Positions 4,645 through 56,916 of a DNA stretch of 64,000 bases are shown in pieces (positions within the stretch are counted from its first letter, which is position 1; every line of letters starts with the position of its first letter). Below the pieces are notes generated by a model. It was given only the letters and a program-made list of their open reading frames with translations. It ran no database searches and had not been told where the DNA came from. The translations under genes and the position numbers were made by a program. The DNA is from Clostridia bacterium (GTDB lineage: Bacteria > Bacillota > Limnochordia > DTU080 > RSA5): the NCBI GenBank assembly GCA_002919235.1, contig PKEX01000028.1, forward strand, positions 2,839 through 66,838, read 5' to 3'.

Positions 4645-4752
4645 TTGTGAAAGTGATCACGAGTCATGATCTTGCCCAAACCCGGGCAGGCGAAGGTGTC
4701 GAAGCGCCCGGATTTGGGCAAAGGGACCGGAAAAGCTGCCCACATGTGGGCA
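4645..4752 (+). repeat. modular intergenic repeat, copy A (CRP-like box + 3 phased palindromes)
   Basis: 5' box TTGTGAAAGTGATCACGAGTCAT spans 4645-4667 (TGTGA-N6-TCACG at 4646-4661). Units are TGCCC-aaaccc-GGGCA 4673-4688, CGCCC-ggattt-GGGCA 4705-4720 and TGCCC-acatgt-GGGCA 4737-4752. Unit centres 4680.5, 4712.5 and 4744.5 are exactly 32 bp apart. Confidence 0.9.
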
Positions 4753-5134
4753 GCTTTTCGCGACGGAACGGCAAAGGATGCATGGACGCGGCTCTCGGCG
4801 TGTCCGTCTTGGGCAATGCACATCGCTCCCGGCGCGGGCAGCGTTGGCCCGGCGTCGCTGGTCGAGGGCCGCCGGTCCAGCCGCCAGGCGGCACGGGGTG
4901 AGGAGCCCAGGGCGGCGGGCAGTCGCTGGGGCGCTGGGTGAAGACTCGCCGGCGGTCTTGCAGCGCGACAGCTCGCGGGCTGTCTGGAGCGGGATGGACC
5001 GGCGAAGCAAATCGAGCGAAACACATATGTCGAAACCGTAACACCGCTGAATCACGGGCGAAATAACCCGCCGCTAGACTCCGAAGTGGAAGCGATTCCA
5101 ACATTCCACCTACGAGTCGAAAGGGGTATCGCCC

Positions 5135-6118
5135 GTGAAGCGTCTTTCCGGCCTCGTTCTCCTTCCCTCGCTGCTTGTCGCCGTGCTGCTTGTGGGCGCC
5201 GGCGGCACGGTTCTCGCCGTCGACCCCGAACTCCCTTCCTACCAGCCGGTGAGCGGGGTCTCCGGCACCATCATCTCCGTCGGTTCCGACACCATGAACA
5301 ACATGATGGCCCTCTGGGCCGAGGGGTTTCGCAAGTTCTACCCCAACGTGCGCTTTGAGATCGAGGGCAAGGGTTCCAGCACCGCTCCGCCCGCGCTGAT
5401 CAGCGGCGCCGCGCAGCTTGGGCCCATGTCCCGGGAAATGACCGCCAGCGAGATCGACGCCTTTGAAAACGCATTCGGCTACAAGCCGACCCTGCTTCGT
5501 GTCGGCCTCGACGCCCTGGCCGTCTACGTCCACAGGGACAACCCCATCGAAGGGCTGACGCTGGCCCAAGTGGACGCCATCTTCTCCAAGACCCTCCGCT
5601 GCGGCTACCCTGAGTCCATCGACACGTGGAGCGAGGCAGGCCTCGGCGGCGACTGGGTCAACCGGCCCATCAGCCTGTACGGCCGCAACTCCGCCTCCGG
5701 CACCTACGGCTACTTCAAGGAAAACGCCCTCTGCGGCGGCGACTACAAGGACACCGTCAAGGAGCAGCCCGGCTCCGCTGCGGTGGTGCAGGGCGTCAGC
5801 GTCGACCGCTACGGCATCGGCTACAGCGGCATCGGCTACATCACGTCGGGGGTGCGCGCCGTACCCCTGGCCCGGGCCGAAGGCCAGCCGTTCATCGACA
5901 CCCGCGTGGAGAACGTGGTGAGCGGCGAATACCCGCTGGCCCGCTTCCTCTACGTCTACGTCAACAAGGCGCCTCACCAGCCCCTTCCGCCGCTGGTGGA
6001 GGAGTTCGTCAAGTTCATCTTCTCCCGCGAGGGCCAGGAGGCCGTCGAGCGGGGCGGCTACGTCTCGGTGCCCGCGAGCTTCGCCGCGGAGCAGCTGGCG
6101 CGAGTGGTGGAGGAGTAA
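5135..6118 (+). CDS. pstS: phosphate ABC transporter substrate-binding protein PstS
   Basis: GTG start lies 9 nt after AAAGGGG. A signal-peptide-like N-terminus is followed by GSDTMNNMMALWAEGF...GKGSSTAPPALISGAAQLGPMSREM, typical of the PstS/PBP family. It is the first gene of a pst operon. Confidence 0.9.
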   Translation: MKRLSGLVLLPSLLVAVLLVGAGGTVLAVDPELPSYQPVSGVSGTIISVGSDTMNNMMALWAEGFRKFYPNVRFEIEGKGSSTAPPALISGAAQLGPMSREMTASEIDAFENAFGYKPTLLRVGLDALAVYVHRDNPIEGLTLAQVDAIFSKTLRCGYPESIDTWSEAGLGGDWVNRPISLYGRNSASGTYGYFKENALCGGDYKDTVKEQPGSAAVVQGVSVDRYGIGYSGIGYITSGVRAVPLARAEGQPFIDTRVENVVSGEYPLARFLYVYVNKAPHQPLPPLVEEFVKFIFSREGQEAVERGGYVSVPASFAAEQLARVVEE

Positions 6119-6220
6119 GCGGACCCGAGGCAAGCACGGCCGCGCGTCGTCGCAGGCCGCCGCACGAGCGCCGCGGCGGCGCGCGGCCCTCAACCCCTAC
6201 ACGCGGAAGGTGAATGAAGC

Positions 6221-8773
6221 ATGCGGGCCCCATGGCTGGGCGACTCGCTGCCGGGAGTTTCCACAGGTCCGGACCCCGCCCGGGCGCTGGCCAAGCGCCG
6301 GGCGCGCCGCCTCCTCCTCGACCGGTTGGGACGAGGCCTGGCCGGGCTGGGGGCAGTGATCACGGTGGGCGCCGTCGCCCTGATCGCCGGGTTCCTCATG
6401 AAGGAAATCGTCCCGCTGCTCCAACCCGCCCGGGTGGAGCGGGCGGGCGTCATTTCGCTGCCCCCGGGCGCTCTGGTCCAGGACGGTTCCCTCGCGGCGA
6501 GCGGGACCGTCCATGCGGCCGGCATCGATGAGTTTAAGGAAAGGCTGTTTCTCTTGCGGGAGGACGGGGTGATCCAGCTGCTCGACGCCCGCACGGGCCA
6601 GCTGCTGGAGCAGGTGGCCCTGGCGCAGCGGCCCGAGCCCGTGAGGGAGGGGAGCGGGGCGGCCGCGCCGAGCGTCACCGCGGCCCGCTATGAGCCCCAG
6701 CGGGGCACCGTCGCCCTGGGCTTTTCCGACGGCCGGGTCGGCGCTGCGCGGGTGGCGTTTCCCGTCGCGTTTGAAGGCCAGCGGCGGGTCGTCTCCTTTT
6801 CCATTGAGGAGAAGGAAAACGTCCAGCTCTTGCCGGAGGGGCAGGCTCCGGCGGCCGTGGACTGGGTGGAGACCCGGGATCGGGTGGTGGCGGTCGGCGC
6901 CGGTGCAGACGGGGGACTGTATCTCCTCGTCCGGCAGGCCGGCCGGTCGCTTTTTGGACCGGCGGAGTGGACCGAGCGCCGCTACGACTTGACGGGGCAG
7001 CTCGCGGGCCGGCCGGCGGCGCTGGCCCTCTCGCCGGACGGGAACGCCCTGGTGGTGGGGGATGACGTGGGGCTCTTGTACCAGTGGGACCTCGCGCCGT
7101 CCGCCGGGCCCCGGCTGGTGGCCGCCGTAGTGGCAGCCGGACCGGAGGCGGGCCGGCTCGTAGACCTCGTGGCTGCGGAACGGCCTGCGGATCCGCGGAG
7201 CGCAGCGCAGTTGGTGAATCCTCCCGGGCGGCTTGGGGACCCGGCGCCCAGGGACCCGGACGATAGGGCCCGCTCGCTCCCCGGATCCCGCCTCGCTCAC
7301 CCTGCTCATACTGATCACTCAGCTCACCCGGCGCACGCTGCTCACCCAGCCGACCCAGCTCTCCCTGCTGGCCCCGCCGTCACTGCGCTGCGGTTCCTGA
7401 TCGGCGGCCGGTCGGTGGTGGTGGGGGACGCGGCGGGAGGGGTGGCGACGTGGTTTGCCGTGCCGGCAGAGGGGCGCGGCCAGGTGCTCCAGCCCGTTCA
7501 CCGGCACAGGAGCCACAATGCTCCGGTGACCCAGATCGCCGCCTCGCAGAGAAACCGCACCTTTGCCACCGCCGACGCCGCGGGCGTGCTCATGATGCAC
7601 CACTCCACCTCGGAGCAGACGTTTTTTGCGCTGGAAGCGGCCGGGGCGCCGGCGGAATTGGTGATCGCACCCAAGAGCGACGGGCTGCTGGCCCTCTCCG
7701 GCGAGGCGGTCGAGCTTTGGCGCGTCCACCTTCCGCACCCGGAGATCAGCCTGAAGACCCTCTTCGGCCGGGTGCATTACGAGGGGTACCCCGAGCCCCA
7801 GTGGATGTGGCAGTCCACCGGCGGGAGCAACGCCTTCGAGCCCAAGTTCAGCCTGACGCCCTTGATCTACGGCACGCTGAAAGGGACGGTTTACGCCCTG
7901 ATCTTTGCCCTTCCCCTGGGCGTGCTGGGAGCCGTCTACACCTCGCAGTTTATGACCCCGCGCCTTCAGAACGTGGTCAAGCCGGCCATCGAGATTATGG
8001 CGGGGATTCCCAGCGTGGTGCTGGGCTTTCTCGGGGGGCTGTGGCTTGCGCCCCGGGTGGCGCAAGGGTTTCCGGCGCTGGTGCTGATGGCGGTCTTCGT
8101 GCCCGGTTCCTTCATCATCGCCGCCTGGACCTGGCACCGGCTCACCGGCGGAAAGCGGCAGCTGCCGGCGGGGGCAGAGGTGCTTCTCCTGGCGCCGGTG
8201 ATCGGTCTTTCCGCCTGGGCCGCGCTGGCGCTGGGCCCGTGGCTCGAAGCCGCAGTGATGCGGGGCGACTTCCGCTTTTGGGTCTTTGACGTCTTCGGCC
8301 TTCCCTACGACCAGCGCAACTCGCTGATCGTGGGCATCGCGATGGGCTTCGCGGTGATCCCCGTCGTCTTCAGCATCTCGGAGGACGCCCTCTCCAGCGT
8401 GCCCCGGGACCAGATCGCCGGCGCGCTGGCCTTGGGGGCCACGAGGTGGCAAACGGTGCGCGGGGTGGTGATCCCTGCGGCCATGCCCGGCATCCTCTCC
8501 TCGGTGATGATGGGCGTCGGCCGGGCAGTGGGCGAGACCATGATCGTCCTGATGGCCACCGGCAACACGCCGGTGATGGACTTCAGCATCTTCAACGGCT
8601 TCCGGGCCCTCTCCGCCAACATCGCGGTGGAGATGCCCGAGGCGCCGGTGGGCGGCACGCTCTACCGGGTGCTGTTCGTCGCCGCCTTGCTCCTCTTCGC
8701 GTTCACGTTTCTCCTCAACACCCTGGGCGAGTGGATCCGCGCCACGATGCAAAGGCGGGTGCAGCGGCTGTGA
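6221..8773 (+). CDS. pstC: phosphate ABC transporter permease PstC, long form with a ~540-aa N-terminal extracytoplasmic extension
   Basis: The C-terminal ~300 aa are a PstC-type permease (six TM segments, EAA-like loop GALALGATRWQTVRGVVIPAAMPGI). The N-terminus has one TM (GLGAVITVGAVALIAGFLM) and then ~480 aa of repeated beta-strand-rich segments. The start codon is uncertain. Confidence 0.85.
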   Translation: MRAPWLGDSLPGVSTGPDPARALAKRRARRLLLDRLGRGLAGLGAVITVGAVALIAGFLMKEIVPLLQPARVERAGVISLPPGALVQDGSLAASGTVHAAGIDEFKERLFLLREDGVIQLLDARTGQLLEQVALAQRPEPVREGSGAAAPSVTAARYEPQRGTVALGFSDGRVGAARVAFPVAFEGQRRVVSFSIEEKENVQLLPEGQAPAAVDWVETRDRVVAVGAGADGGLYLLVRQAGRSLFGPAEWTERRYDLTGQLAGRPAALALSPDGNALVVGDDVGLLYQWDLAPSAGPRLVAAVVAAGPEAGRLVDLVAAERPADPRSAAQLVNPPGRLGDPAPRDPDDRARSLPGSRLAHPAHTDHSAHPAHAAHPADPALPAGPAVTALRFLIGGRSVVVGDAAGGVATWFAVPAEGRGQVLQPVHRHRSHNAPVTQIAASQRNRTFATADAAGVLMMHHSTSEQTFFALEAAGAPAELVIAPKSDGLLALSGEAVELWRVHLPHPEISLKTLFGRVHYEGYPEPQWMWQSTGGSNAFEPKFSLTPLIYGTLKGTVYALIFALPLGVLGAVYTSQFMTPRLQNVVKPAIEIMAGIPSVVLGFLGGLWLAPRVAQGFPALVLMAVFVPGSFIIAAWTWHRLTGGKRQLPAGAEVLLLAPVIGLSAWAALALGPWLEAAVMRGDFRFWVFDVFGLPYDQRNSLIVGIAMGFAVIPVVFSISEDALSSVPRDQIAGALALGATRWQTVRGVVIPAAMPGILSSVMMGVGRAVGETMIVLMATGNTPVMDFSIFNGFRALSANIAVEMPEAPVGGTLYRVLFVAALLLFAFTFLLNTLGEWIRATMQRRVQRL

Positions 8774-10443
8774 ACCGCGGGTTTTGGCGCTCGGGCGATC
8801 CGCTGGTCTGGACCGCGGCGGGAGCCCTGGCCCTCTGCTTGATCATGCTCTTCGGCCTGGTGGGCCTCGTTGCGTTCCGGGGACTGGCGTACTTTTGGCC
8901 CGCGGAGCTGGTCCAGCTGGAACTGGCGGACGGGAGCCTTGTGGTGGGCCAGGTGACAGGGAGGGAGCGGATCCCGGCTCCCGGCGGCACCGGAGCGGCG
9001 GCGCGCGGCCGCATCCAGCTCAAAGTGGGCAACCGGGACGTCTACGGCCTCGACTTCCGCTGGATCGAGGAAGACCTGATCACGGGGTGGTCCGCCCCGC
9101 CGGAGCTGGCCGTGGTGGAGCGGCTGGAACAGGGCGACGCCTACGGCGTGCCGGTGCGGCTGCTCCAGGACGGGGAAGTGGCAGCCCAGGGAGACGAGAT
9201 CCTCGAGCGGCTGCCGGCGATGCTGGCCGAGGCGGCGGCCTTGCGGCGGGAGCTGCGCCGGCTCGAGCGGGACGTGGTGGGCGACATCAACCGGCGGATC
9301 GAGGCGGCTCGCCTTGCTCTGGTACGCCTTGAGCGCCAGGCGGGAGGCGGTGCGGCAAGCCTGCAGGGCGTCGACCCGCACCAGGAGGCCGCGGCCCGGG
9401 GCCAGGAGGCCGCTGCGCGGCACCGGGAGGCCATCGCCCGGGCGCAAGCCCAGTACGAGCAGGTGCTCCAGGAGATCGCCGCCCTGCGCCGGCAGCTCTC
9501 GGGCCGCACCCTGGTCCTGGCGTTGGCCGGCGGCAGCGAGCTTTCCGTCGACGTCGCCAGCATCGTCCGGATCTACCGGCCCAACGCGATGTCCCCCGGC
9601 GAAAAGCTGGGATTCTACGCGGCAAAGCTCTGGGAGTTTCTCTCCAGCGAGCCGCGGGAGTCCAACACTGAGGGCGGCATCTTCCCCGCCCTCTTCGGCA
9701 CCGTCTTGCTGGTGCTCATCATGACCGTGGCGGTGGTGCCCATCGGGGTGCTGGCCGCGGTCTACCTCAAAGAGTACGCCCGGGACGGCTGGTTCACCCG
9801 GGCGCTCTGGATCGCCATCCGCAACCTGGCCGGCGTCCCTTCCATCGTCTTCGGCATCTTCGGCCTGGGCTTTTTCATCTACGGGGTGGGCGGCAGCATC
9901 GACCGGGCCTTTTTCCCCGAGCGGCTTCCGGCCCCCACCTTCGGCACCGGGGGGATCCTGTGGGCCTCGTTGACCCTGGCCCTCCTTACCCTGCCCGTGG
10001 TCATCGTCGCGACCGAGGAGGGGCTCGCCGCGGTGCCCCGCGCGGCCCGGGAGGCGTCGTACGCCTTGGGGGCCACCCGGTTTGAGACGGTGTGGAAAGT
10101 GGTGGTCCCCGGCGCCATGCCCGGCATCCTCACCGGCGTGATCCTGGGCATCGCCCGGGCCACCGGCGAAGTGGCGCCGCTGATGATGACCGGCGTCGTC
10201 AAGCTCGCTTCCGAGCTGCCGGTGGACGGCCTCTTTCCCTTCATACACCTTGAGCGCAAGTTCATGCACCTGGGCTTTTTCATCTACGACCTGGGCTTTC
10301 AGTCGCCCAACGTGGAGGCGGCCCGGCCGATGCTCTTTGCGACGGCGTTTACCCTCCTCGCCGTGGTGCTGGTCCTCAACGGGGCGGGCATCGGCCTCCG
10401 AAACCGCATCCGCGCCCGGATCGAGAAGGCGGGGCCGGGATGA
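8770..10443 (+). CDS. pstA: phosphate ABC transporter permease PstA, long form
   Basis: GTG at 8770 overlaps the pstC stop (GTGA). The protein has an N-terminal TM, a ~270-aa insert with an Ala/Arg/Glu-rich coiled-coil-like stretch, and then a PstA permease core ([25 protein letters not shown]). The track start at 8446 lies inside pstC. Confidence 0.85.
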
Positions 10444-10576
10444 CGGTGAAGAGGCGGCAGACGTCCCGGGGACACGGGATCCGGGCGAGCGAGGGACGTC
10501 GATGCGGGAGCGGTTTGGGAGAAGCGTGTGGCAACGGCAGTTTGAGAACGGCGAGTTCTTAGAGGAGGAATGCCAG

Positions 10577-16038: not shown

Positions 16039-18006
16039 ATGCTGCAGCGAGTTGCCCACACAGTGCGCGCCTTGACGGCGGATGCGGTCGAGGCGGCAAA
16101 GTCAGGACACCCGGGCCTGCCGCTGGGCATGGCCGAGGTCGGCGCGCTCCTCTACGGCAAGATCCTGCGCCACGACCCGGCGTGGCCCGAGTGGCCTGAC
16201 CGCGACCGGGTGGTCCTTTCGGCGGGCCACGGGTCGATGTGGCTCTACAGCTTGCTCCACCTGTCGGGCTACGACCTTTCGCTGGATGAGATCAAGAGGT
16301 TCCGCCAGCTGGGTTCGGCGACGCCCGGCCATCCCGAGCACGGCGAGACGCCGGGGGTAGAGACCACCACCGGACCCCTGGGACAGGGGATCGCCAACGC
16401 CGTGGGCATGGCGCTGGCCGAGCGGATGCTGGCGGCCCGTTTCAACCGGCCGGGGCATGAGATCGTGGGCCACTACACCTACGTCATTGCCAGCGACGGC
16501 GACCTGATGGAAGGCGTCGCCGCTGAAGCCTCGTCTCTCGCAGGCCACCTGGGCCTGGGCCGGCTCATCGTCTTTTACGACGACAACCAGATCACCATCG
16601 AGGGCAAGACGTCCCTGGCCTTCTCCGAGGACGTGGCCAAGCGCTACGAAGCCTACGGCTGGCACGTGCTCTTCGTGGACGGACACGACATGGCGGCGGT
16701 GGAGGAAGCGATCCGCGCCGCTCAGGCCGAGACGGAGCGGCCGAGCCTCATCGTGACCAAGACCACCATCGGCTGGGGCACGCCCATCGCCGGCACCTCC
16801 AAGGTGCACAGCGACCCGCTGGGTGCCGAGAACATCGCCGCGCTCAAGGCGAAGATCGGCTGGCCCGAGGAGCCGTTCTACGTCCCCGCCGAGGTGTACG
16901 AGTTCTTCAACGAGCGCAAGAAGGAGCTGGCCAAGGAGAGCGCCGCGTGGAAGGAGCGCTTTGAAGCCTGGTCCAAGGCGTATCCCGAGCTGAGGGCCGA
17001 GTGGGACAAGGCCTTCGGCCTCGAGCTGCCCGAGGATCTGGAAAGCGCCCTGCCCGAGTTTGCGCCGGGCGAGAAGGTCGCCACCCGGGCCGCGGCGGGC
17101 AAGGTGCTCCAGAAGCTGGCCGAGCGGGTGCCGTACCTGGTGGGCGGCTCGGGCGATCTGCATCCTTCGACCAAGACCTACATTGAAGGCGCCGCCGCGG
17201 TGACCAAGGGCGAGTACGGCGGCCGCAACCTCCACTTCGGCGTGCGGGAGCACGGCATGGGCGCCATGCTCAACGGCATGCAGCTCCACGGCGGCTTCCG
17301 CGTGTACGGGTCCACCTTCCTCACCTTCGCCGACTACATGCGGCCGTCCATCCGCCTCGCAGCGCTGATGAAGCAGCCGGTGATCTTCATCTTCACGCAC
17401 GATTCGGTATACGTCGGCGAGGACGGCCCCACGCACCAGCCGGTGGAGCAGGCCGAATCGCTCCGCATCATCCCCAACGTGGAGGTGTACCGCCCGGCCG
17501 ACGCGGTCGAGGCGGGCCTGGCCTGGATCGAAGCGCTGAAGCGGACGGACGGCCCCACCGTGCTGCTCTTTACCCGGCAGAACGTGCCGGTGCTGGAGCG
17601 GCAGGAGCGCCCGGACCTGAGCCGGGGCGCGTACGTGATCAAGCGGGAGGAGAACGCCCTGGCCGCCGTGATCCTAGCCAGCGGGAGCGAAGTGGCGCTG
17701 GCGCTGGACGCCGCCGCCCAGCTGGAGACGGAAGGCATCGGCGTCCGTGTGGTGTCGGTGCCCAACCGGGAGCTCTTCCTGCGCCAGGACGCCGCCTACC
17801 AGGAGTCGGTCGCGCCGGCCGGCACGCCCAGGCTGGTGGTGGAGGCGGGCGTCGGCCACGGCTGGAGGGGCTTGGCAGGGGAAAACGGCCGGATCCTTTC
17901 TATCGAGCGCTTCGGCGTGAGCGCTCCGGGTGCCCAGGCCGCGGCACACCTTGGCCTCACGGTCGAGCGGGCGGTGGCGCTGGTCAAGGAGATGATTGGC
18001 AAGTAA
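16039..18006 (+). CDS. tkt: transketolase
   Basis: ATG at 16039 lies 8 nt after [50 protein letters not shown] and [10 protein letters not shown] are present over a full-length ~655 aa. Confidence 0.95.
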
Positions 18007-18210
18007 GAAGGCGGCCAGCTTCCAGCCGGGCGGGAGCGGCCCGGCGCAGTGGAGCCGCACGCGTCATGGACCCCGGCAGAGAGGTCCACGAGCCTCTTCG
18101 CCGGGGTCCTCGTCGTTCGCGGGCGAGGCAAGAACGGTCCGGCCGCCCGGCCGAAGGCGCGTGCGGCCTCGCGAGGCTGCGGCGCGGCGAGCCCTGCTTC
18201 CCGTGCCGGC

Positions 18211-18642
18211 TCATTCGGGGGAGGAGGCGGCGCCGGGATGTGCGAAGCGGCGGCGCAGCAAGGTGTAGGCCACGCGCCACGCGATCAGGCAGGCCGCGCC
18301 CAGCAGAAAGGCGACCACGGCAAAAAGCAGCGGCGCGCCGCGCTGGAGCAAGAGGACCCGGAGCTGCATCGCGATGGGAATCGTGAGCAGCCACGCCAGG
18401 GCGGCGCTCCGGACGGCAGGCCCGACGCCCGTCACCGCCCGCTCCCAAAAGACGCCGAGCCAAAGGCCGATGGCCACCCAGGCGATGAGAAAAGGCACTG
18501 CCGTGATCAGCACGGACAGCGCGCCGCGGGCGGTGCCGTGTTCGATCATGCCCAGCAGCGTGAAGATGATGACCACGACGAGGTCCCCCAGAAAGAGCGA
18601 GGGGAGAAAGCGGCCGCGGGTTCCGCCCAAAGCCCGGGTCAA
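18211..18642 (-). CDS. DUF3054-like small membrane protein
   Basis: 143 aa with four hydrophobic segments. LGDLVVVIIFTLLGMIEHG resembles the DUF3054 N-terminal motif. It overlaps the upstream gene by 4 nt. Confidence 0.55.
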   Translation of the reverse strand: MTRALGGTRGRFLPSLFLGDLVVVIIFTLLGMIEHGTARGALSVLITAVPFLIAWVAIGLWLGVFWERAVTGVGPAVRSAALAWLLTIPIAMQLRVLLLQRGAPLLFAVVAFLLGAACLIAWRVAYTLLRRRFAHPGAASSPE

Positions 18643-19780: not shown

Positions 19781-19784
19781 ATTT

Positions 19785-19829: not shown

Positions 19830-20118
19830 CATCTATACAACTTTTTGCATCGCCCCGGCGCACCGGGAATGCGCCGGGACGGTGCGGCGCCTCTCCGGTG
19901 CACCGGAGGCAGTGAGGTGTGCCGGACGGGTACTCTGGGGTGCGCTGGATGGATGCCCGTCATCCACGGCGTGTTCGGGGGCCTGTGAGAACTCAGCCGC
20001 CGCCGCAAGGGGGGGTGGAAGCTGCGAGGTCGACGCAGCGCTGTCCGGCGGGCGGCGAGCGGAGCGCACGGAGCGCTTTGCTGAACGAGACACGTTCTTG
20101 GTCGGGAGGGCGTGGTCG

Positions 20119-20247
20119 ATGGTGAGGCGTTTCCTGGTCAGACTTCTGGGGAAACTGGGGCTGTTCCGCCCGGCAACCGTCAGCACAGGCCTGACACCTG
20201 AAGAGTATCAGATGCTGCGGGAGCTGGTGGCGGGAAAGAAAGTGTAG
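20119..20247 (+). CDS. candidate small protein (42 aa), untracked as a separate ORF
   Basis: ATG at 20119 lies 8 nt after GGGAGGG (20104-20110). Translation is MVRRFLVRLLGKLGLFRPATVSTGLTPEEYQMLRELVAGKKV. Codon usage is less GC3-biased than in neighbouring genes. It is the first SD-preceded ORF downstream of the riboswitch. Confidence 0.4.
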   Translation: MVRRFLVRLLGKLGLFRPATVSTGLTPEEYQMLRELVAGKKV

Positions 20248-30678: not shown

Positions 30679-30786
30679 TTGTGAAAGTGCTCACGAGTCA
30701 TCAAGGTGCCCGGTTCTGGGCGGCGAAACGCAGCCGCCTGCCCACCTTTGGGCAGGACCGCGCGCCCGCGCGCTCATAAATGGGCA
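30679..30786 (+). repeat. modular intergenic repeat, copy B
   Basis: 5' box TTGTGAAAGTGCTCACGAGTCAT spans 30679-30701 (22/23 identical to copy A). Units are TGCCC-ggttct-GGGCG 30707-30722, TGCCC-accttt-GGGCA 30739-30754 and CGCTC-ataaat-GGGCA 30771-30786. Centres are 32 bp apart. Confidence 0.9.
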
Positions 30787-31067: not shown

Positions 31068-31151
31068 ATGGAGCGAGACCGGACGAACGTGGAGCAAGAC
31101 CGGACGGCCGTGGAGCGCGACGGGACCACCGTGGAACGAGACCGGACGATC
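31068..31151 (+). repeat. four tandem 21-bp repeats at the 5' end of the flavoprotein gene
   Basis: ATGGAGCGAGACCGGACGAAC / GTGGAGCAAGACCGGACGGCC / GTGGAGCGCGACGGGACCACC / GTGGAACGAGACCGGACGATC. Each unit begins with a potential start codon and encodes (M/V)E(R/Q)D(R/G)Tx. Confidence 0.9.
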
Positions 31152-42480: not shown

Positions 42481-42507
42481 GCGGCGCCGGATGAGCCGGA
42501 GCCCGGT

Positions 42508-42615
42508 TTCGTGAACGTCCCCACAATCCCGGCTTTGCCCAAAAGCGGGCACGCGACAAGGCTCAACTGCCCACCAATGGGCGCGCCTCGGCGCTGGCTT
42601 GCCCACCGGTGGGCA
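42508..42615 (+). repeat. modular intergenic repeat, copy C1
   Basis: Box CGTGA-acgtcc-CCACA spans 42510-42525. Units are TGCCC-aaaagc-GGGCA 42536-42551, TGCCC-accaat-GGGCG 42568-42583 and TGCCC-accggt-GGGCA 42600-42615. Centres are 32 bp apart. Confidence 0.85.
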
Positions 42616-42706: not shown

Positions 42707-42813
42707 TTGTGATAGATACCGCGATCACCGCTCGGCTCACTCCCGGGCGTCGATCCGCGCATCCTCGCCCACAAATGGGCAGGTGTCGCTGTTCCGGTGC
42801 CCATTTTTGGGCA
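42707..42813 (+). repeat. modular intergenic repeat, copy C2
   Basis: Box TGTGA-tagata-CCGCG spans 42708-42723 (right half degenerate). Units are GGCTC-actccc-GGGCG 42734-42749 (degenerate), CGCCC-acaaat-GGGCA 42766-42781 and TGCCC-attttt-GGGCA 42798-42813. Every sub-feature lies exactly 198 bp after its C1 counterpart. Confidence 0.8.
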
Positions 42814-42901: not shown

Positions 42902-43011
42902 TTGTGGTGAAAGTGATCGCGATCGCAGTTGGGCCCGTTCTTGGGGGTGTTTCGAAGGGTTCCTGCCCACTCGTGGGCAGACGGGCTCTTCCACGCGCCC
43001 ACTTTTGAGCA
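42902..43011 (+). repeat. modular intergenic repeat, copy C3
   Basis: TTTGTGGTGAAAGTGATCGCGATCGCAG carries the box GGTGA-aagtga-TCGCG at 42906-42921. Units are GGCCC-gttctt-GGGGG 42932-42947 (degenerate), TGCCC-actcgt-GGGCA 42964-42979 and CGCCC-actttt-GAGCA 42996-43011. It lies exactly 198 bp after C2. Confidence 0.8.
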
Positions 43012-43315
43012 GGTGGACCGCCGTGACGGGAACCCCGGGACGGGAACCCCGGGGCGGGACCCTTTGACGGGTGCGCCGGGCGCGCCAGGGAGCTTGAATT
43101 GAAGAATGGAAGGCGCCCGGCGCAGCAAAGCGCCTTGTCGCCAGCGGGGTGCGGACAGCGGGAGCGCCGAGGGCAGCGGCGCCGATGGTGAGGAGTGCAG
43201 CGGCGGTCGTTGACATTGCGTCCCGGCTTTGTGTATCGTCAAGGACACAGCCCGCAGTGGAGGCCGTCACCGGCGCGGCCCGCGGGCAGCGCTTGGAGCC
43301 GGGAGGGAGCCACCT

Positions 43316-50421: not shown

Positions 50422-50425
50422 CGCG

Positions 50426-51325
50426 GTGGCTACGTCCCAGACCCTCGCGCGCCAGGGCGCCCTCAACGTATCCGACGTCCAGCGCCCCAGGTCGGTGGGA
50501 GCCCATCTCCTCTTGCTCCCCGCGTACCTGTGGCTCGGTATCTTCTTCTTGCTCCCGCTCGTCATCATCGTGTACTACAGCCTCACTGTCCGCACGCCCC
50601 TGGGCGGTTCGGAGGCTGTGTTCACGCTTGAGCACTACGCACGGCTTTGGGATCCGCTGTACGCTCGCATCTTCTGGCGGTCGCTGTGGCTCGCGGTGGC
50701 CACCACCGTCATCACCATCCTGATGGCGTATCCCTTCGCCTACGCGCTGGCCCGTACGCCGCAGCGGTGGAAAAACCTCCTGCTCTTGCTCAGCGTCATT
50801 CCCTTCTGGACCAACTTTTTGGTCCGCACGTACGCCTGGATGGTGATCCTCCGCTCCAACGGGCTGGTCAACACGGCCCTGATGAGCCTGGGGCTGATCG
50901 AGCAGCCCCTCCCGCTCCTGTTTACGCCGGGCTCGGTGCTTCTCGGCCTGGTCTACGGCTTTCTGCCGTTCATGATCCTCCCGATTTACGCGGCCATTGA
51001 CCGGCTGGAGCCCAGCCTGCTCGAGGCCGCGGCGGATCTGGGCGCGCGCCCGTGGCAGACGTTCTGGCGCGTCACGCTGCCGCTGACCGCACCGGGGATC
51101 GCCGCCGGCGTCCTGCTGGTCTTCGTGCCGGCGCTGGGCATGTTCATCATCCCCGACCTGATGGGCGGGGCCAAGGTGACCCTCATCGGGAACCTGATTC
51201 AAAACCAGTTCCTGAGCGCCCGGAACTGGCAGTTTGGCTCGGCGGCCAGCGTGGTGCTGATGGCCCTCGTCGTCCTAGGGCTCAGGCTCTACAAACGCTT
51301 TTTCCGTTTGGAAGGGGTGTTCTGA
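50426..51325 (+). CDS. potB: spermidine/putrescine ABC transporter permease PotB
   Basis: Six TM segments and the EAA loop LLEAAADLGARPWQTFWRVTLPLTAPGIAAG. Confidence 0.85.
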   Translation: MATSQTLARQGALNVSDVQRPRSVGAHLLLLPAYLWLGIFFLLPLVIIVYYSLTVRTPLGGSEAVFTLEHYARLWDPLYARIFWRSLWLAVATTVITILMAYPFAYALARTPQRWKNLLLLLSVIPFWTNFLVRTYAWMVILRSNGLVNTALMSLGLIEQPLPLLFTPGSVLLGLVYGFLPFMILPIYAAIDRLEPSLLEAAADLGARPWQTFWRVTLPLTAPGIAAGVLLVFVPALGMFIIPDLMGGAKVTLIGNLIQNQFLSARNWQFGSAASVVLMALVVLGLRLYKRFFRLEGVF

Positions 51326-51327
51326 CC

Positions 51328-52251
51328 GTGGGACGCAGGGGGCTGCGGGTTGCAGCCGGAGCTTACATGGCGCTCATCTTCTTCTTCCTTTACTTCCCCA
51401 TCGGGGTCCTGGTGGTCTTCTCGTTCAACGCGTCGAGGATCAACGCCACGTGGCAGGGCTTTACCCTCGATTGGTACCGCCAGCTTTTCCACGACTTCGC
51501 CATTTGGGCCGCGACCAGCAACAGCCTGATCGTAGGGGTGGCGTCCGCCGCCATCTCGACGGTGATCGGCACCATGGCGGCCTTTGCGCTCCATCGCTAC
51601 TCCTTCCGGGGCAAGGCGGCGTTTGAATCGCTCCTCCAGCTTCCCATCGTCATCCCGGAGATCGTGATGGGCGTCTCCCTGCTGGCGTTCTTCGTCCTCA
51701 TCGAGATGCCGCTGGGCCTGCACACCGTCACCATCGCCCACGTGGCGTTCAACATCTCCTTCGTCACCGTCGTGGTGCGCGCCCGCCTCTACGCCTTCGA
51801 CTTCACGCTGGAGGAGGCGGCGATGGACCTGGGCGCGAACCGGTGGCAGACCTTCTTCAAGGTGACCTTGCCGCTCATCGCGCCCGGCGTGGCCGCAGGC
51901 TTTCTGATCGCGCTCACGCTCTCCTTGGACGATTTCATCATCGCCTTCTTCACCGCCGGGCCGGGCGCCAACACCCTGCCCATGCAGGTCTACTCCATGA
52001 TGCGCTTCGGCGTCACGCCCAAGGTGAATGCCCTGTCCACGCTGATGCTGGCGGTGGTGATCCTCATCGGCGTGGTGGGACAGTTCATCTTCCGGGGCCG
52101 GAAAGAGACGCCGGTTCCGGAAGAGGAAATCCATCCGGTGCCAAGGGGGTTCGAGGTCTATGCGAAAGCTGGCTCTGATCGTGCTCGGGTGCCTGTTGGC
52201 GCTGTCGGCGCCCGCAGCAGCCCAGACGCTCAACATCTACAACTGGGCTGA
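51328..52251 (+). CDS. potC: spermidine/putrescine ABC transporter permease PotC
   Basis: GTG at 51328 lies 2 nt after the potB stop. The EAA loop is LEEAAMDLGANRWQTFFKVTLPLIAPGVAAG. The reading frame stays open ~45 codons past the last TM and overlaps potD by 92 nt. Confidence 0.8.
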   Translation: MGRRGLRVAAGAYMALIFFFLYFPIGVLVVFSFNASRINATWQGFTLDWYRQLFHDFAIWAATSNSLIVGVASAAISTVIGTMAAFALHRYSFRGKAAFESLLQLPIVIPEIVMGVSLLAFFVLIEMPLGLHTVTIAHVAFNISFVTVVVRARLYAFDFTLEEAAMDLGANRWQTFFKVTLPLIAPGVAAGFLIALTLSLDDFIIAFFTAGPGANTLPMQVYSMMRFGVTPKVNALSTLMLAVVILIGVVGQFIFRGRKETPVPEEEIHPVPRGFEVYAKAGSDRARVPVGAVGARSSPDAQHLQLG

Positions 52252-53182
52252 CTACCTGGATGACGCGGTCATCCGGGAGTTTGAGCGGGAATACGGCATC
52301 CGTGTAATCTATAACGTCTATTCCAACAACGAAGAGCTGCACGCGCGCCTTCGGGGCGGCGCGTCGGGGTACGATGTCATCTTCCCCAGCGACTATATGG
52401 CGGAAGTGCTGATCGCCGAGGGCCTGCTGCAGCCCATTCCCCGTGAGGCCGTGCCCAACCTGGCCTACATCGACGAGCGGTTCCTGGATCTGCCGTTCGA
52501 TCCCGGCAACCAGTACACCGTGCCCTACCTTTGGGGCTCCACCGGGATCGGCGTGAACACCCGCTACGTGAAGGAGCCGGTGGACAGCTGGGACATCCTG
52601 TGGGATCCCAAGTACCGGGGCCGCATCGCCATGCTGAACGATCCGCGGGAGGTGTTCGGCGTCGCGCTGAAGCGGCTGGGCTACTCGGCCAACACCCGGG
52701 ATCTTGAAGCGCTGGAGAAGGCGAAGGAGCTCCTGGTTGAGCAAAAGCCGCTGGTCCTCACCTACGACAGCGACAACACGGAGATTCTCCTGGTCTCCGA
52801 AGAGGTGTGGCTGGCTCACGGCTACTCCGGCGACGTGCTCCGGGCGATGGAGGACAACCCCGACATCACGTACGTGGTGCCCAAAGAGGGCGGGCTCCTC
52901 TGGATGGACGTGATGGCGATTCCCAAGACCGCTCGCAACGTGGACGGGGCCCTGAAGTTCATCAACTTCATCCTGCGGCCCGACATCCACGCCCGGCTGG
53001 CGGAGGCGAACCAGTACCCGACGCCCAACCGGGCGGCCTGGGAGTACCACGACGAGGAGTTCCGGCAAAACCCCGCCATCTACGTGCCGGACGACGTGAT
53101 GGAGCGGATGGAGTGGATCGAGGACCTGGGCGACATGGCGACGGTCGTCGACCGCCTCTGGACCGAAGTGAAGGCGGACTGA
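52160..53182 (+). CDS. potD: spermidine/putrescine ABC transporter substrate-binding protein PotD
   Basis: Signal peptide MRKLALIVLGCLLALSAPAAAQ is followed by LNIYNWADYLD...PYLWGSTGIGVN..., a PotD/PotF family pattern. Confidence 0.9.
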   Translation: MRKLALIVLGCLLALSAPAAAQTLNIYNWADYLDDAVIREFEREYGIRVIYNVYSNNEELHARLRGGASGYDVIFPSDYMAEVLIAEGLLQPIPREAVPNLAYIDERFLDLPFDPGNQYTVPYLWGSTGIGVNTRYVKEPVDSWDILWDPKYRGRIAMLNDPREVFGVALKRLGYSANTRDLEALEKAKELLVEQKPLVLTYDSDNTEILLVSEEVWLAHGYSGDVLRAMEDNPDITYVVPKEGGLLWMDVMAIPKTARNVDGALKFINFILRPDIHARLAEANQYPTPNRAAWEYHDEEFRQNPAIYVPDDVMERMEWIEDLGDMATVVDRLWTEVKAD

Positions 53183-53189
53183 GAAAGAC

Positions 53190-53221
53190 AAGGCGCCTTG
53201 CGCAAAGCAAGGCGCCTTTTT
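53190..53221 (+). terminator. intrinsic terminator after potD
   Basis: AAGGCGCCTTGC (53190-53201) pairs with GCAAGGCGCCTT (53207-53218) around a 5-nt loop and runs into TTTTT (53217-53221). Confidence 0.85.
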
Positions 53222-53368
53222 CGTTTGATCTTTGAGGACGCCCGCGGCGGGCACGGCGCAGCCCCTTGCCGAGCCCGCGCGGAACCGGTAGGCGGGCGCT
53301 CCTGCGCGGCGGGGTAAGACGTCCGTGGCGACCGGCGGCGGCGACGGCCTGCACCAGCGCCGGGGGTG

Positions 53369-54754
53369 TTACACCGCGCTGGGGCCCGATGCCTCTTGCG
53401 GAGCAAACGCGGCCAGATGCCGCGCCTCGGTCCGCCGCAGCCGGAGCCAAAGTCCCAAGGCCGCGACGGCGAGGCCGCTGATGAGCCCGATCCAGTAGCC
53501 GTAGGGGCCCAAGCGGGTCCAGTGGGCCAGCGTATACCCCGTGGGCAGCCCCACGCACCAGTGGGCCAGCAGCACCACCGCGAGGACCACGGAGACGTCT
53601 TTGTAGCCCCGGAGCGTTCCTTGGATCGGCGCCCCGACGGCGTCGGAGAGCTGGAAGAAGATCACGTAGCGGAGAAACGACTGCACCAGTGCGAGGAGCT
53701 CCGGATCCCTGGTGTAAAGCCCTGCGATCTGCTTTGAAAAGAGCGAGAGCGAGAGCATGATGACGGCCGCGACCGAGATGGAGGCGGTGAGGCCCAGGCG
53801 GCGGTATTGGATCGCGTCGCGGATCCGGCCGGCGCCCACCTCGAAACCGACGACGATGGTGAGCGCCTGGGCGACGCTCAAGGGGAACATGAAGAGCAGG
53901 GTGCTGAAGCTGAGCGCCGACTGGTGGGCTGCGACCACCAGCGTGCCGAACCCGCTCATCAGCAGCGAGACCAGGGAGAAGATCCCGATTTCCAGAGCGA
54001 TGGTGAGCCCTATGGGAATGCCCACGCGCAGCTGCTCCCCCCATGCCCGGGGCTGGATCTGAAGCGGCTGCCGGAAGACGGCGTACGAGGCGAAAGGCTG
54101 CACCTGGGCGGCGAGGAACAAGGCGATGGCCAGCTCGATCCAGTAGGTCACCGCCGAGGCGTAGCCCGCTCCCACGCCGCCCAGCGCGGGAAAGCCCGCT
54201 TTGCCGAAGATGAGGAGGTAGTTGAAAAGCACATTGACCGGCAGCCCGATCAGGGCGATGGCCATCGTCACCCGGGTGAGGCCCAGGGCGTCGAAGAAGC
54301 AGCGAAGCACATTGTAGGCCAGCGCCGGCACCAAGCCCCACGAGAGCGCGATGAGATAGCGGTGGGCAATGGCGCGGACCTCGGGCTCCAGATCCATCGC
54401 CCCCAGGAGCAGGGGAAGGCCGGTGGCGCCCGCCGCGACCAGCACGCCGCAGAGAACCAGCGAGAGATAAAGCCCTTGCAGGACGGTGGCGGAGACCTCC
54501 TGTTTGCGCCCGGCGCCCAAATGCTGCGCCACGATGGGCGTCACCGCCAGCAGAATGCCCCCGACCCCGTTGACCACCGGCGCCCAGATGTTCCCCCCGA
54601 TGGCCACCCCTGCCAGGTCGCGGGCGCTGAACCGGCCGGACATCATCGCATCGAGCACCTGGATGCCGGCCAGCGCGGCCTGGGTGACGAAGATGGGGAC
54701 AAAGATGACGAACAGCTGCTGTAGCTTCTCGGAGATGGTGTAGGTCTGCTTCAT
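53369..54754 (-). CDS. MATE-family efflux transporter
   Basis: The start is placed at ATG 54754 (MKQTYTISEKLQQLFVIFVPIFVTQAALAGIQVLDAMMSGRFSARDLAGVAIG), the standard MATE/NorM N-terminus. It has 12 TM segments. The track ORF extends a further 92 codons upstream. Confidence 0.85.
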   Translation of the reverse strand: MKQTYTISEKLQQLFVIFVPIFVTQAALAGIQVLDAMMSGRFSARDLAGVAIGGNIWAPVVNGVGGILLAVTPIVAQHLGAGRKQEVSATVLQGLYLSLVLCGVLVAAGATGLPLLLGAMDLEPEVRAIAHRYLIALSWGLVPALAYNVLRCFFDALGLTRVTMAIALIGLPVNVLFNYLLIFGKAGFPALGGVGAGYASAVTYWIELAIALFLAAQVQPFASYAVFRQPLQIQPRAWGEQLRVGIPIGLTIALEIGIFSLVSLLMSGFGTLVVAAHQSALSFSTLLFMFPLSVAQALTIVVGFEVGAGRIRDAIQYRRLGLTASISVAAVIMLSLSLFSKQIAGLYTRDPELLALVQSFLRYVIFFQLSDAVGAPIQGTLRGYKDVSVVLAVVLLAHWCVGLPTGYTLAHWTRLGPYGYWIGLISGLAVAALGLWLRLRRTEARHLAAFAPQEASGPSAV

Positions 54755-54903
54755 CGCAATCCCTTCGCCCAATACTGCCATTATAGCCCCGCGGGCAGAG
54801 GCTGTCATCCCGCGCAGGGTGCCCTGGGCGCAGGGCACGCCGACCAGCAGTCCCTTTTTGCGATGGCGCAAAGACGGGGCGGCCCGCAGCCGGTAGCCTG
54901 GAG

Positions 54904-56136
54904 GTGACGGAGACGCCGCAGGCCGGCTTTCCGCCGGCCGCTGGATCTGCCGGCTGCGGCCGGGACGAGACGTCCAGGCGGCAGCGCTTCGCTGGAGGAG
55001 GGATCGTCGTGGCGGCACGCAGCGCCGCACGGCTCATCCCCGGGGCAGCGGGCATCGTCGCCCTCGCCGCCGGGTTGTGGACGTCGCTGGCGAGGTTGGG
55101 GTTTGAGGTCGAAGGGGTCCAGTCGCTCAACCACGGACCGCTGATGGTGGGCGGGTTCATCGGCACCATCATCGCATTGGAAAGGGCGGTCGCGCTGGGG
55201 CGGCCGTGGGGCTACGCCGGGCCCGCTCTCGGCGCCGTGGCCGCCGTGATGCTGCTCTTTTCCGCACCCTACCAAGCGGCGGCTGTCCCCCTCTTCCTCT
55301 CGTCGCTGGTCCTCCTGGCCACGTTCGCGGTTTTCATCAAGAGAGGCGCCGCGGACTTTACCGTGATCATGGCGGTGGGCGCCCTGGCCTGGACGGTGGG
55401 CAACGGCCTGCTGCTCAGCGGCTGGCTGATCCCCCACGTGGTTCCGTGGTGGGCCGGGTTTCTGATCCTCACCATCGCCGGGGAGCGGATCGAGATGAGC
55501 CGCGTGCGGCCCCGGCCGCCCTGGGCCCGGCGGTTCACGCACACGCTGGTGGGCCTTTACGCCGCGGCGCTCTTTCTCACGCTGGTCGACCACGACCTGG
55601 GCGTGCGCGCCGGCGGCGTGACCCTCATCGCCCTCTGCCTGGCGCTGGCGCACGGGGACGTGGCCCGCTGGACCCGCAGGAGCCAGGGCGTGGCCCGCTA
55701 CGCCGCTTACAGCATCCTTTCGGGATACGCATGGCTCGCGCTGTCCGGCCTGCTCGCCGCAGTGTTTGGCCAGCCCCTGGGCGGGCTGCACTACGACGCC
55801 TGGACGCATTCGGTCTTCGTGGGCTTTGTGATGGTGATGATCATGGCGCATGCGCCGATCATCCTGCCGGCGGTGGCCGGGATCGCCGTGGCGTTCTCCC
55901 GCTGGATGTACGTGCCGGTGATCCTGCTCCAGGCGTCGCTGGTGCTGCGCATCGCCGCCGATCTCATGCTGTGGTGGAGCGGCCGGCAGTGGACGGGCCT
56001 CTTGAACGTGGTGGCCGTGGTGCTGTTCCTGGCAGTGATGGTCCGGGGAGCGCTCAGGGCGCGGCGGGCCGCGGGCGCCGAAGCGCAGCCCCAGCCGGCG
56101 GGATCGCCCGCGACCTTGGTCCCGGTGAAGGAGTGA
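54904..56136 (+). CDS. polytopic membrane protein of unknown function
   Basis: About 10-12 hydrophobic segments. Recurring motifs are HGPLMVGGFIGTIIALERAVAL, LTIAGERIEMSR and MAHAPIILP. The start is uncertain because the N-terminal ~40 aa are non-membrane and Arg/Gly-rich. The stop abuts the DUF59 gene. Confidence 0.6.
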   Translation: MTETPQAGFPPAAGSAGCGRDETSRRQRFAGGGIVVAARSAARLIPGAAGIVALAAGLWTSLARLGFEVEGVQSLNHGPLMVGGFIGTIIALERAVALGRPWGYAGPALGAVAAVMLLFSAPYQAAAVPLFLSSLVLLATFAVFIKRGAADFTVIMAVGALAWTVGNGLLLSGWLIPHVVPWWAGFLILTIAGERIEMSRVRPRPPWARRFTHTLVGLYAAALFLTLVDHDLGVRAGGVTLIALCLALAHGDVARWTRRSQGVARYAAYSILSGYAWLALSGLLAAVFGQPLGGLHYDAWTHSVFVGFVMVMIMAHAPIILPAVAGIAVAFSRWMYVPVILLQASLVLRIAADLMLWWSGRQWTGLLNVVAVVLFLAVMVRGALRARRAAGAEAQPQPAGSPATLVPVKE

Positions 56137-56141
56137 CGGCC

Positions 56142-56450
56142 GTGGAAATCGACACGCAGCGGATCTGGACGGCTCTCAAGAGCGTGCTCGATCCCGAGCT
56201 GGGAGTGAACATCGTCGACCTCGGGCTGGTGTACGACGTGAAAATCGACCACGGCCACGTGGACGTGCGGATGACGATGACCACCCCTGCGTGCCCCCTG
56301 AGCTCGTATTTCCAGCACGTCATTCCCCGGGTGGTTTCAGAGCAGGTGGAGGAAGTGGGCTCCGTCTCGGTGCGGCTGGTCTGGGATCCGCCGTGGAGAC
56401 CCGAGATGATGTCCGACGAAGCCAAGAAAGCCCTGGGCTGGTGGCGCTGA
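56142..56450 (+). CDS. DUF59 (SufT/MIP18-like metal-sulfur cluster assembly factor) protein
   Basis: GTG at 56142 lies 8 nt after AAGGAG (56128-56133). LKSVLDPELGVNIVDLGLVYDV...MTMTTPACPL is the DUF59 signature including the conserved Cys. Confidence 0.85.
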   Translation: MEIDTQRIWTALKSVLDPELGVNIVDLGLVYDVKIDHGHVDVRMTMTTPACPLSSYFQHVIPRVVSEQVEEVGSVSVRLVWDPPWRPEMMSDEAKKALGWWR

Positions 56451-56546
56451 GGCACCAGGGGAGAGGGGCGCGGCGGCCGGGCTGATTCGCCGGCGCCCCG
56501 TCTCGTCTCGCCCGCCGCCGGCGTGAGAACAGGAGGCGGATTCCCC

Positions 56547-56807
56547 GTGGCGGAAGTCACCCGCACCGCTCGAGAGATCATTGTCGACGTCAGGGACGAC
56601 CTGAGGCAGGGGCGCGAGCCCTTCGGCGACATCATGGAAGCCCTGCGTGAGACACCGCCGGGCCACGCTTTCGTCGTGCTGGCGACGTTTCTTCCGGAAC
56701 CGCTCATCGCGCTCCTCCAGGATCAAGGCTTCGAAAGTACGGCAGAGAAGCTGCCCGGCGGAGAGTGGCGGGTGAGCTTTCTGCGGCGACCGCCCGCCCA
56801 GCGATGA
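56547..56807 (+). CDS. DUF2249 domain protein
   Basis: GTG at 56547 lies 10 nt after AGGAGG (56531-56536). IIVDVRDDLRQGREPFGDIMEALRETPPGHAFVVLATFLPEPLIALL matches the DUF2249 pattern (DVR...G..P...I......L..G..l.l...f.P.PL). Confidence 0.75.
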   Translation: MAEVTRTAREIIVDVRDDLRQGREPFGDIMEALRETPPGHAFVVLATFLPEPLIALLQDQGFESTAEKLPGGEWRVSFLRRPPAQR

Positions 56808-56808
56808 G

Positions 56809-56916
56809 TTGTGAACGTGAACACAGGTTGCGAATGTGCCCGGATGTGGGCACGCCGGTACGCCGGAACGCCCAGATGTGGGCAGGCGGGTTCCATCCGC
56901 CGCCCATTTTTGGGCT
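56809..56916 (+). repeat. modular intergenic repeat, copy D
   Basis: Box TGTGA-acgtga-ACACA spans 56810-56825. Units are TGCCC-ggatgt-GGGCA 56837-56852, CGCCC-agatgt-GGGCA 56869-56884 and CGCCC-attttt-GGGCT 56901-56916. Centres 56844.5, 56876.5 and 56908.5 are 32 bp apart. Confidence 0.9.

Follow-up and report, generated by a model that had tools for sequence, protein, structure and literature searches.

An intergenic module of three palindromes in 32-bp register with a polar 5' box, restricted to one high-GC Bacillota lineage

The window is a 64,000-nt stretch of DNA from Clostridia bacterium (assembly GCA_002919235.1, contig PKEX01000028.1, positions 2,839 to 66,838). It contains six copies of an intergenic module at four loci, and each copy consists of a 5' box followed by three 16-bp palindromes that can be read directly. 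Copy A lies between the S4 (rpsD) gene, whose stop is 105 nt upstream, and a PBP_like_2 (PstS-like) gene, which begins 382 nt downstream. Copy B follows the SpoVR gene and precedes a Pyr_redox_2 gene that encodes a TrxR-like flavoprotein. Three tandem copies, C1 to C3, lie between TrkH and an alpha/beta hydrolase gene, the first beginning 28 nt after the TrkH stop. Copy D begins 2 nt after the stop of a DUF2249 gene (56807) and ends 105 nt before the start of Vut_1/YhhQ. These flanking genes are all on the plus strand, and Pfam matches at all four loci agree with the names given in an earlier note on this DNA. Over the whole window, the distance from the upstream stop to the element is 2-105 nt, and that from the element to the next start is 105-382 nt.

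Copy A spans 4645-4752 on the plus strand (nhmmer E 9e-23), with the box TTGTGAAAGTGATCACGA at 4645-4662 and units at 4673-4688 (TGCCCAAACCCGGGCA), 4705-4720 and 4737-4752. The other five copies in the window, also on the plus strand, were both read directly and recovered by nhmmer. Copy B (30679-30786) has the box TTGTGAAAGTGCTCACGA at 30679-30696 and units at 30707-30722, 30739-30754 and 30771-30786, the last with GCTC in place of GCCC. At the TrkH locus, copy C1 (42508-42615) has the box TTCGTGAACGTCCCCACA at 42508-42525 and units at 42536-42551, 42568-42583 and 42600-42615. Copy C2 (42707-42813) has a degenerate box, TTGTGATAGATACCGCGA, at 42707-42724 and units at 42734-42749 (GCTC), 42766-42781 and 42798-42813. 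Copy C3 (42905-43011) has the box TGGTGAAAGTGATCGCGA at 42905-42922 and units at 42932-42947 (degenerate), 42964-42979 and 42996-43011 (TGAGCA). Copy D (56809-56916) has the box TTGTGAACGTGAACACAG at 56809-56826 and units at 56837-56852, 56869-56884 and 56901-56916. The first G of GCCC in unit 1 is at 4674, 30708, 42537, 42735, 42933 and 56838, and the later units follow at +32 and +64. In copy A, the flanks of unit 3 lengthen it to a perfect palindrome with 14-bp arms (AAAAGCTGCCCACATGTGGGCAGCTTTT, 4731-4758) followed by TTTT, which resembles a bidirectional intrinsic terminator after rpsD. Directly after C3 is a 14-bp tandem repeat, CCGGGACGGGAACC, of 2.8 copies (43021-43059); CGGGAAC-like motifs are also present after C2 and A.

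In the JGI metagenomes, the three-unit pattern matches 17 loci. Four of these are genuine (copies A, C1 and D and a new locus, E), and all four are from this species. Locus E carries two copies, E1 and E2, in a 1.2-kb divergent intergenic region on contig PITZ01000007.1 of the metagenome-assembled genome (MAG) GCA_017577385.1. The proteins of the window match exactly those of contig PITZ01000005.1 from the same MAG. Other assemblies in NCBI, ENA, JGI and Logan, among them GCA_047459375.1, GCA_017577665.2 and ERZ27256727, also contain this species, and its contigs occur in metagenome runs that include SRR32607925, SRR29457791 and SRR24044317. Locus E is flanked on one side by an operon for an oligopeptide-type binding protein, which is on the other strand, and on the other side by a rhodanese/YeeE-like/TusA/rhodanese operon, whose orientation the element shares. 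In the ~94 kb of this genome that was covered, nhmmer --max finds eight copies, at five loci, and no further degenerate ones.

The palindrome units have the consensus TGCCCA-N4-TGGGCA, with half-site centres 10 bp apart. In the eight copies, the 16 intervals between units each measure exactly 32 bp, and the three intervals between tandem copies (C1-C2, C2-C3 and E1-E2) each measure exactly 198 bp. The module never occurs with another number of units than three, and the box is never met without the three palindromes. The ~90-bp tails between tandem copies have no shared sequence except a short CCCAGCTA motif common to C1 and C2. When one mismatch is allowed, GCCC-N6-GGGC matches 174 times in the window, and chaining at 32 bp is confined to 18 units in six triplets. 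Exact units number 23, compared with 9.8 +/- 3.5 in dinucleotide-preserving shuffles, none of which (0/100) reaches 23. Fourteen of the 23 are inside the arrays and the remaining isolated units are at chance level. A search of the window for other periodic palindrome triplets (4-bp arms, gap 2-10, period 18-49) finds none beyond these arrays.

Over all copies, the box has the consensus TTGTGAAAGTGAyCACGA, and the only positions that never vary in it are GTGA, a G and two Cs. Unit 1 follows 25 or 26 nt (about 2.5 turns) downstream of the box core. A CRP-like palindrome, TGTGA-N6-TCAC, is well formed in three of the eight copies (A, B and D), and the boxes of the other five keep mainly the left part (GTGAAAG) and a CAC. 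The earlier note reported six plus-strand copies with 18 units in exact 32-bp register and a match of 22/23 nt between the boxes of A and B, and both statements are borne out by the scan and by direct reading. The GCCC-N6-GGGC core of its unit pattern is exact in 14 of the 18 units; the third unit of B, the first of C2 and the first and third of C3 each have one GCCC/GGGC mismatch. Its assignment of TGTGA-N6-TCACR to each copy is correct for A, B and D and does not extend to the others.

Identity between copies is ~84% in the arms. In the 16-nt spacers and the N4 centres it is 31% and 30%, where composition alone predicts 29% and 27%, respectively. The centres are ~60% A+T in a genome of 68% G+C, with 36% T versus 24% A on the plus strand. 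There is no clear AT periodicity in the spacers. Unit 1 deviates from the consensus at ~2.4 positions on average, compared with ~0.9 for unit 2 and ~0.75 for unit 3. The inner arm positions of unit 1 are made asymmetric by a single transition in all eight copies, with A..C in four and G..T in four; in units 2 and 3 they are A..T in 15 of 16. TGCCCA-N4-CGGGCA is the reverse complement of TGCCCG-N4-TGGGCA, and the two forms are one asymmetric duplex site in two orientations. Within the species, single-nucleotide polymorphisms are present at 0/288 arm positions, at 3/256 spacer positions and once in a box, a direction that fits selection on the arms with counts too small for significance. No indels or presence/absence differences of the element are seen among strains. 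The spacers have a weak strand-specific bias that has no mirror counterpart (8 copies, e.g. 4689-4704), with G at position 10 in 12/16 and at position 2 in 10/16. Because the arms, the register and the 198-bp phase persist while the spacers and centres are randomised, comparison of the copies shows purifying selection on arm sequence and geometry, locus by locus.

The closest relatives used here have flavoproteins 87-91% identical, TrkH 69-73% identical and a rhodanese 81% identical to those of this species. In these relatives (JGI 3300000208 and ERZ27254879 among them), the orthologues of loci B, C and E have no element, and none is present elsewhere in ~100 kb. Diverged versions are also not found in them, either with the pattern at up to 2 mismatches per unit, with a generic periodic-palindrome scan or with nhmmer --max (best E about 1.2). 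The gap between SpoVR and the flavoprotein gene is 84-160 nt in the relatives versus 470 nt here. In the GTDB representative genomes, the exact three-unit pattern occurs at 49 loci, none of which resembles the element. All but two are plain tandem repeats with a period of 16 or 32, and the two exceptions are alphaproteobacterial arrays of a different palindrome. On alphaproteobacterial MAG or metagenome contigs (3309-3440; 6390-6520; 4180-4310), four copies of a 14-16-bp palindrome, GCCCGGATCCGGGC, are 32 bp apart with non-identical spacers. These arrays appear inside or between the halves of a membrane-protein open reading frame (ORF) and may be another phased-palindrome repeat family. Two scans of viral contigs and BLAST searches of plasmids and phages give no match to the element, and literature searches for the motif and for the assembly accession give no paper.

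The element is a previously undescribed ~110-bp intergenic module that is restricted to one lineage. Among named TrkH homologues, the nearest (~49% identity) come from MAGs of Limnochordales and Firmicutes, and the proteins of this species are labelled Clostridia bacterium or Bacillota bacterium at NCBI. The novelty claimed in the earlier note survives, as searches of Rfam, the literature, plasmids, phages, viral contigs and GTDB genomes give no match. A check for further copies and for relatives, which that note had proposed, gives the two additional copies of locus E in the same genome and relatives that lack the element at three orthologous loci. Interspersed repeats with randomised spacers escape ordinary repeat finders and BLAST, and only a periodic-motif scan detects them.

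The distribution bears on whether the module is a selfish repeat, that is, a mobile element of the REP/REPIN or MITE (miniature inverted-repeat transposable element) type whose transposase reads the palindromic arms, for instance as hairpins of single-stranded DNA like a RAYT or HUH enzyme, and which has no host function. The confinement to intergenic DNA and to one lineage, the tandem clusters (three copies at C and two at E) and the absence from three orthologous loci, which implies that copies were gained by insertion or duplication, are all congruent with such a repeat. A 12-nt direct repeat, TTTCGCGcCGGA / TTTCGCGaCGGA (4634-4645 and 4757-4768; 11/12 nt), abuts both ends of copy A and is a possible target-site duplication (p about 0.02, uncorrected). 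At the other four loci, however, flanking direct repeats are at chance (p = 0.56-0.72). There are no terminal inverted repeats, no transposase gene (RAYT included) is seen in the ~94 kb, all copies have the same direction relative to the downstream gene, and the strains are free of presence/absence polymorphism and indels. The copies also differ outside the arms and box, with spacers at the random level, so there has been no recent copying and persistence would require selection at each locus. A selfish repeat without recent copying is disfavoured because it would not keep its arms, register and tandem phase while the remainder is randomised. We consider a selfish origin without host function improbable.

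REP/BIME, BOX, ERIC and the STAR repeats of Staphylococcus aureus are short, GC-rich, palindrome-containing, intergenic, lineage-specific, multicopy, sometimes clustered and modular, and the element shares this character. Copies in these families either keep the entire unit, with its loop and linker, or fall into recent subfamilies. The element is not a member of REP/BIME: its palindromes, at 16 bp, are shorter than REPs (~20-40 nt), their centres are variable, the linkers are random (0.31 versus 0.29), the register is invariant and no alternating orientation is seen. The units take a direction only from the box, which is on the same side in every copy. A CRISPR array was also rejected, since the element has 16-bp units with free centres, 16-bp spacers and a count fixed at three, whereas CRISPR repeats are ~23 nt or longer, identical also at their centre and variable in number, and their spacers are ~26 nt or longer. 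With no terminal inverted repeats and a flanking direct repeat at copy A only, the element does not fit a MITE or other transposon-derived repeat.

The orientation of the element is that of the downstream gene at all five loci. According to the earlier note every copy lies between co-directional genes; this is the case within the window and not at locus E, where the region is divergent, and the rule that holds is agreement with the downstream gene. GC skew is positive in 15 of 16 window bins, and around E, taken in the orientation of the element, it is negative in 5 of 6 bins. Because the sign of the skew differs between the window and E, the polarity tracks the downstream gene and not the replication strand (five loci). 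At locus E, the end of E2 is ~70 bp upstream of a promoter, TTGACA-17-TATCGT. Since this promoter is kept in a relative that has no element, the E element sits upstream of a conserved promoter of the operon it points at. A sigma-A-like promoter, TTGACA-18-TATCGT, is also present at 43210-43239, ~200 bp downstream of C3 and ahead of the hydrolase gene. The promoter of the rhodanese operon and ~40 nt around it are conserved with the relative (locus-E record 9558-10001; relative's record 9850-10001). The leader of this operon is ~400 nt in this species and contains CACCATCG-type short repeats, and ~330 nt of the leader are missing in the relative.

The orientation rule also bears on a role in chromosome organisation, in which the arrays would be bound by a RacA-, ParB- or Noc-like segregation or anchoring protein, or would serve as topological barriers, with no gene-specific role. 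The loci are dispersed (5 in ~94 kb, or roughly one per 15-20 kb), the 16-bp GC-rich inverted repeats resemble centromere-like motifs such as the RacA ram and parS sites in style, and sporulation-type genes (SpoVR, DUF1256/YyaC-like and Spo0E-like) are present. Known sites of this kind are single palindromes without a polar box or an orientation rule, whereas the orientation here follows the downstream gene. The sites are only intergenic, and isolated units are not above chance. A purely chromosomal role is therefore very unlikely.

The conserved arms could be recognised as double-stranded DNA or as RNA. In an alignment of 23 units, the covariation score is 0.104, below the 0.132 that shuffles reach on average, and 483 of the 500 shuffles equal or exceed it. 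Only one cell (23 units x 6 pairs) has a change on both sides; most arm pairs are invariant, which makes this a weak test but not a contrary one. For the eight cores, the covariation term of RNAalifold is 0.06, and pairing between units 1 and 2 is preferred to individual hairpins. The folds of single sequences differ among copies and often pair neighbouring units, and the minus strand folds as well or better (copy A z = -8.5). In the plus strand, folding relative to shuffles gives z = -5.3 for copy A and z = -4.3 for copy D. Stable tetraloops are not enriched at the units. Scans for intrinsic terminators give no consistent site at the units, and a T-run is present only after unit 3 of copy A. 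As RNA, one of the unit-1 variants would have an A-C mismatch and the other a G-U wobble; the two are equivalent only as duplex DNA for a symmetric dimer. Recognition as double-stranded DNA is favoured because the unit-1 variants are the same duplex site flipped, together with the one-turn spacing of half-sites, the AT-rich free centre and the three-turn register.

An Rfam scan of the whole window at gathering thresholds has no match at the elements, and more permissive E-value scans of the loci with copies A, C1 and E1/E2 also have none there. The sole match in the window is a c-di-GMP-I-GGC riboswitch aptamer (RF03167, 19667-19771, plus strand, 68.2 bits, E 5e-14), upstream of a 121-aa ORF at 19882-20247 that has no Pfam match. 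Classification as an Rfam family or an intrinsic terminator was rejected, as there is no match and a T-run at one unit only. The compensatory changes that would mark a structured RNA are not seen in the covariation test, which is a weak one.

In an RNA-level role, the element would be transcribed with its neighbours, and the GCCCR/YGGGC hairpins and the box would be sites for a sequence-specific RNA-binding protein or endoribonuclease, 3'-end stabilisers or terminator-like structures. Several observations agree with this. A co-directional gene ends 2-105 nt before each of copies A-D, the orientation of every copy agrees with that of transcription on its flanks, unit 3 of copy A gives a 14-bp stem with TTTT after it, folding is better than in shuffles for copies A and D, and the centres are somewhat T-rich on the plus strand. 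They are opposed by the lack of covariation in both analyses, by folds that vary by copy and are equalled or surpassed on the minus strand, and by unit-1 variants that are equivalent only as duplex DNA. The absence of tetraloop enrichment and of a consistent terminator, the U-tract at a single copy and the lack of an Rfam match even in permissive scans weigh on the same side. Locus E is upstream of a conserved promoter in a divergent region, and independent hairpins need no strict 32-nt register. An RNA-level role appears unlikely on this evidence.

The left half of the box, TTGTGAA, equals the half-site of Rex (TTGTGAA-N4-TTCACAA), and its palindromic form is close to the CRP consensus, TGTGA-N6-TCACA. 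In A and B the box reads TGTGA-N6-TCACG, and A, B and D match the CRP consensus at 9/10 positions. In the other five copies the right half is less well preserved (6-8 of 10 match). No -10 element is present at the class II activation distance from the box. A Crp/Fnr-family regulator gene (cNMP_binding + HTH_Crp_2; locus-E record 17876-18571, minus strand) is ~8 kb from E, adjoining thioredoxin/glutaredoxin-like genes. Its product is a candidate binder of the TGTGA-type box, linked to it by proximity alone. A sigma-70 promoter inside the element was rejected, as no copy has a -10 at 16-18 nt from TTGTGA and promoter scans of the element are empty.

The enhancers of sigma-54 activators of the NorR and NtrC type have three palindromic sites, at which three dimers nucleate a hexamer, and lie at a variable distance far upstream. 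This class was rejected for the element. No -24/-12 sequence (TGGCAC-N5-TTGCW) is found in the five intergenic regions or in the window at 10/11 or more matches, and the two recognisable promoters downstream of the element are of the sigma-A type.

The geometry of the array is most similar to that of two groups of regulators. Lrp-type regulators bind clusters of imperfect palindromes on one helix face, with centres 2 or 3 turns apart; the boxes have centres of weak base pairs and graded strength, and three Ss-LrpB dimers of Sulfolobus solfataricus wrap ~100 bp (PMC2995911, PMC1802622). The element likewise has three 16-bp palindromes at 32 bp that span 80 bp, are graded and have centres of ~60% A+T. 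It differs in its GC-rich half-site, TGCCCA, compared with 15-bp Lrp consensus boxes such as TTGCAAAATTTGCAA, in its extra polar 5' box, and in its recurrence at unrelated genes and in 198-bp tandem. The likeness is one of mechanism by analogy and not of membership, as the half-site sequence is unrelated and no Lrp-family protein is linked to the element. NrdR sites comprise a pair of 16-bp boxes, each a partial palindrome, and a linker of 15-16 bp that is free in sequence and strongly conserved in length, which gives a period of 31-32 bp (PMC13584703; bioRxiv 10.1101/2024.05.27.596032). All 16 intervals of the element have the same geometry, 16 + 16 bp. NrdR sites, however, are pairs with an AT-rich consensus unrelated to the TGCCCA/TGGGCA arms and are located at ribonucleotide reductase promoters, whereas the element occurs in triplets and its five downstream operons include no nrd genes.

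The best reading of the element is an interspersed repeat of intergenic DNA with the behaviour of a phased operator array, at which dimers would cooperate. We give about an even chance to the module being a double-stranded DNA platform on which a protein complex assembles. In such a platform, a dimeric, sequence-specific protein would recognise each TGCCCA-N4-TGGGCA and leave the AT-rich centre free. The 32-bp register would place three dimers on one helix face, where they could bind cooperatively as a hexamer or a wrapped complex. Unit 1 may be a deliberately weaker, asymmetric site; since the deviations are graded from unit 1 to unit 3, the units would form an array of graded affinity, as is typical of cooperative operators. 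The 5' box may serve a second protein, for instance a dimer of the CRP/FNR or Rex kind, or may belong to the same complex, and would give the module its polarity. The least secure step is that the module would influence in cis how the gene towards which it is oriented is transcribed. Its most likely roles would then be as a distal operator or architectural element, or as a roadblock or insulator between transcription units.

Several observations are not easily accommodated by an operator array. The distance to the downstream start codon varies from 105 to 511 nt, and the two recognisable promoters are ~70 and ~200 bp away, which means that the geometry relative to the promoter is not fixed. 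A set of three tandem copies in front of a single hydrolase gene is unusual for an operator. The five downstream operons (phosphate uptake, flavoprotein, hydrolase, YhhQ and the rhodanese/YeeE/TusA set) have no obvious common theme, and elements A-D could be co-transcribed with the upstream gene. The invariant arms are neutral on RNA pairing and are compatible with a hairpin that is read sequence-specifically. The sample is eight copies in ~94 kb of a single species. The earlier note had interpreted sequence conservation without covariation, in three-turn phasing, as protein-DNA recognition. This view is supported by the covariation and RNAalifold results, the randomised spacers, the unit-1 flip and locus E. 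As a whole, that interpretation retains its DNA-site reading and its novelty and loses the box palindrome outside three of eight copies and the co-directional rule at E; an RNA role is compatible with the data.

If the operator-array reading is right, the element is an unusually clean natural case of selection on geometry, with 12 of 16 positions held in each site and the rest random. It could also serve as a probe with which to find a global regulator, or an architectural protein, of this uncultured high-GC Bacillota lineage associated with compost, and would exemplify the recruitment of whole operator arrays, rather than single sites, to new genes. More tentatively, the module may be a portable, pre-assembled cis-regulatory cassette of the enhancer or insulator kind, ~198 bp long with its box and three phased operators. 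Insertion and tandem duplication would have spread it, host selection would have kept its copies, and unrelated operons would have been wired to one oligomeric DNA-binding protein. Such a cassette is possible but doubtful. If it exists, it would be a bacterial counterpart of the arrays of transcription-factor sites borne by transposable elements.

Two genes in the window have unusual features. At the 5' end of the longest flavoprotein ORF, downstream of copy B, there is a 21-bp tandem repeat of 3.9 copies (31069-31149). The flavoproteins of the relatives are ~17 residues shorter and do not contain the stretch encoded by this repeat. From this comparison the true start is probably downstream; otherwise, the N-terminus may have undergone repeat expansion. 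In the pst cluster, an 850-aa protein (6221-8773, plus strand) has a C-terminal ABC permease domain, BPD_transp_1, and a long N-terminal region with weak beta-propeller-like matches only, which is unusual for a permease of the PstC/PstA type.

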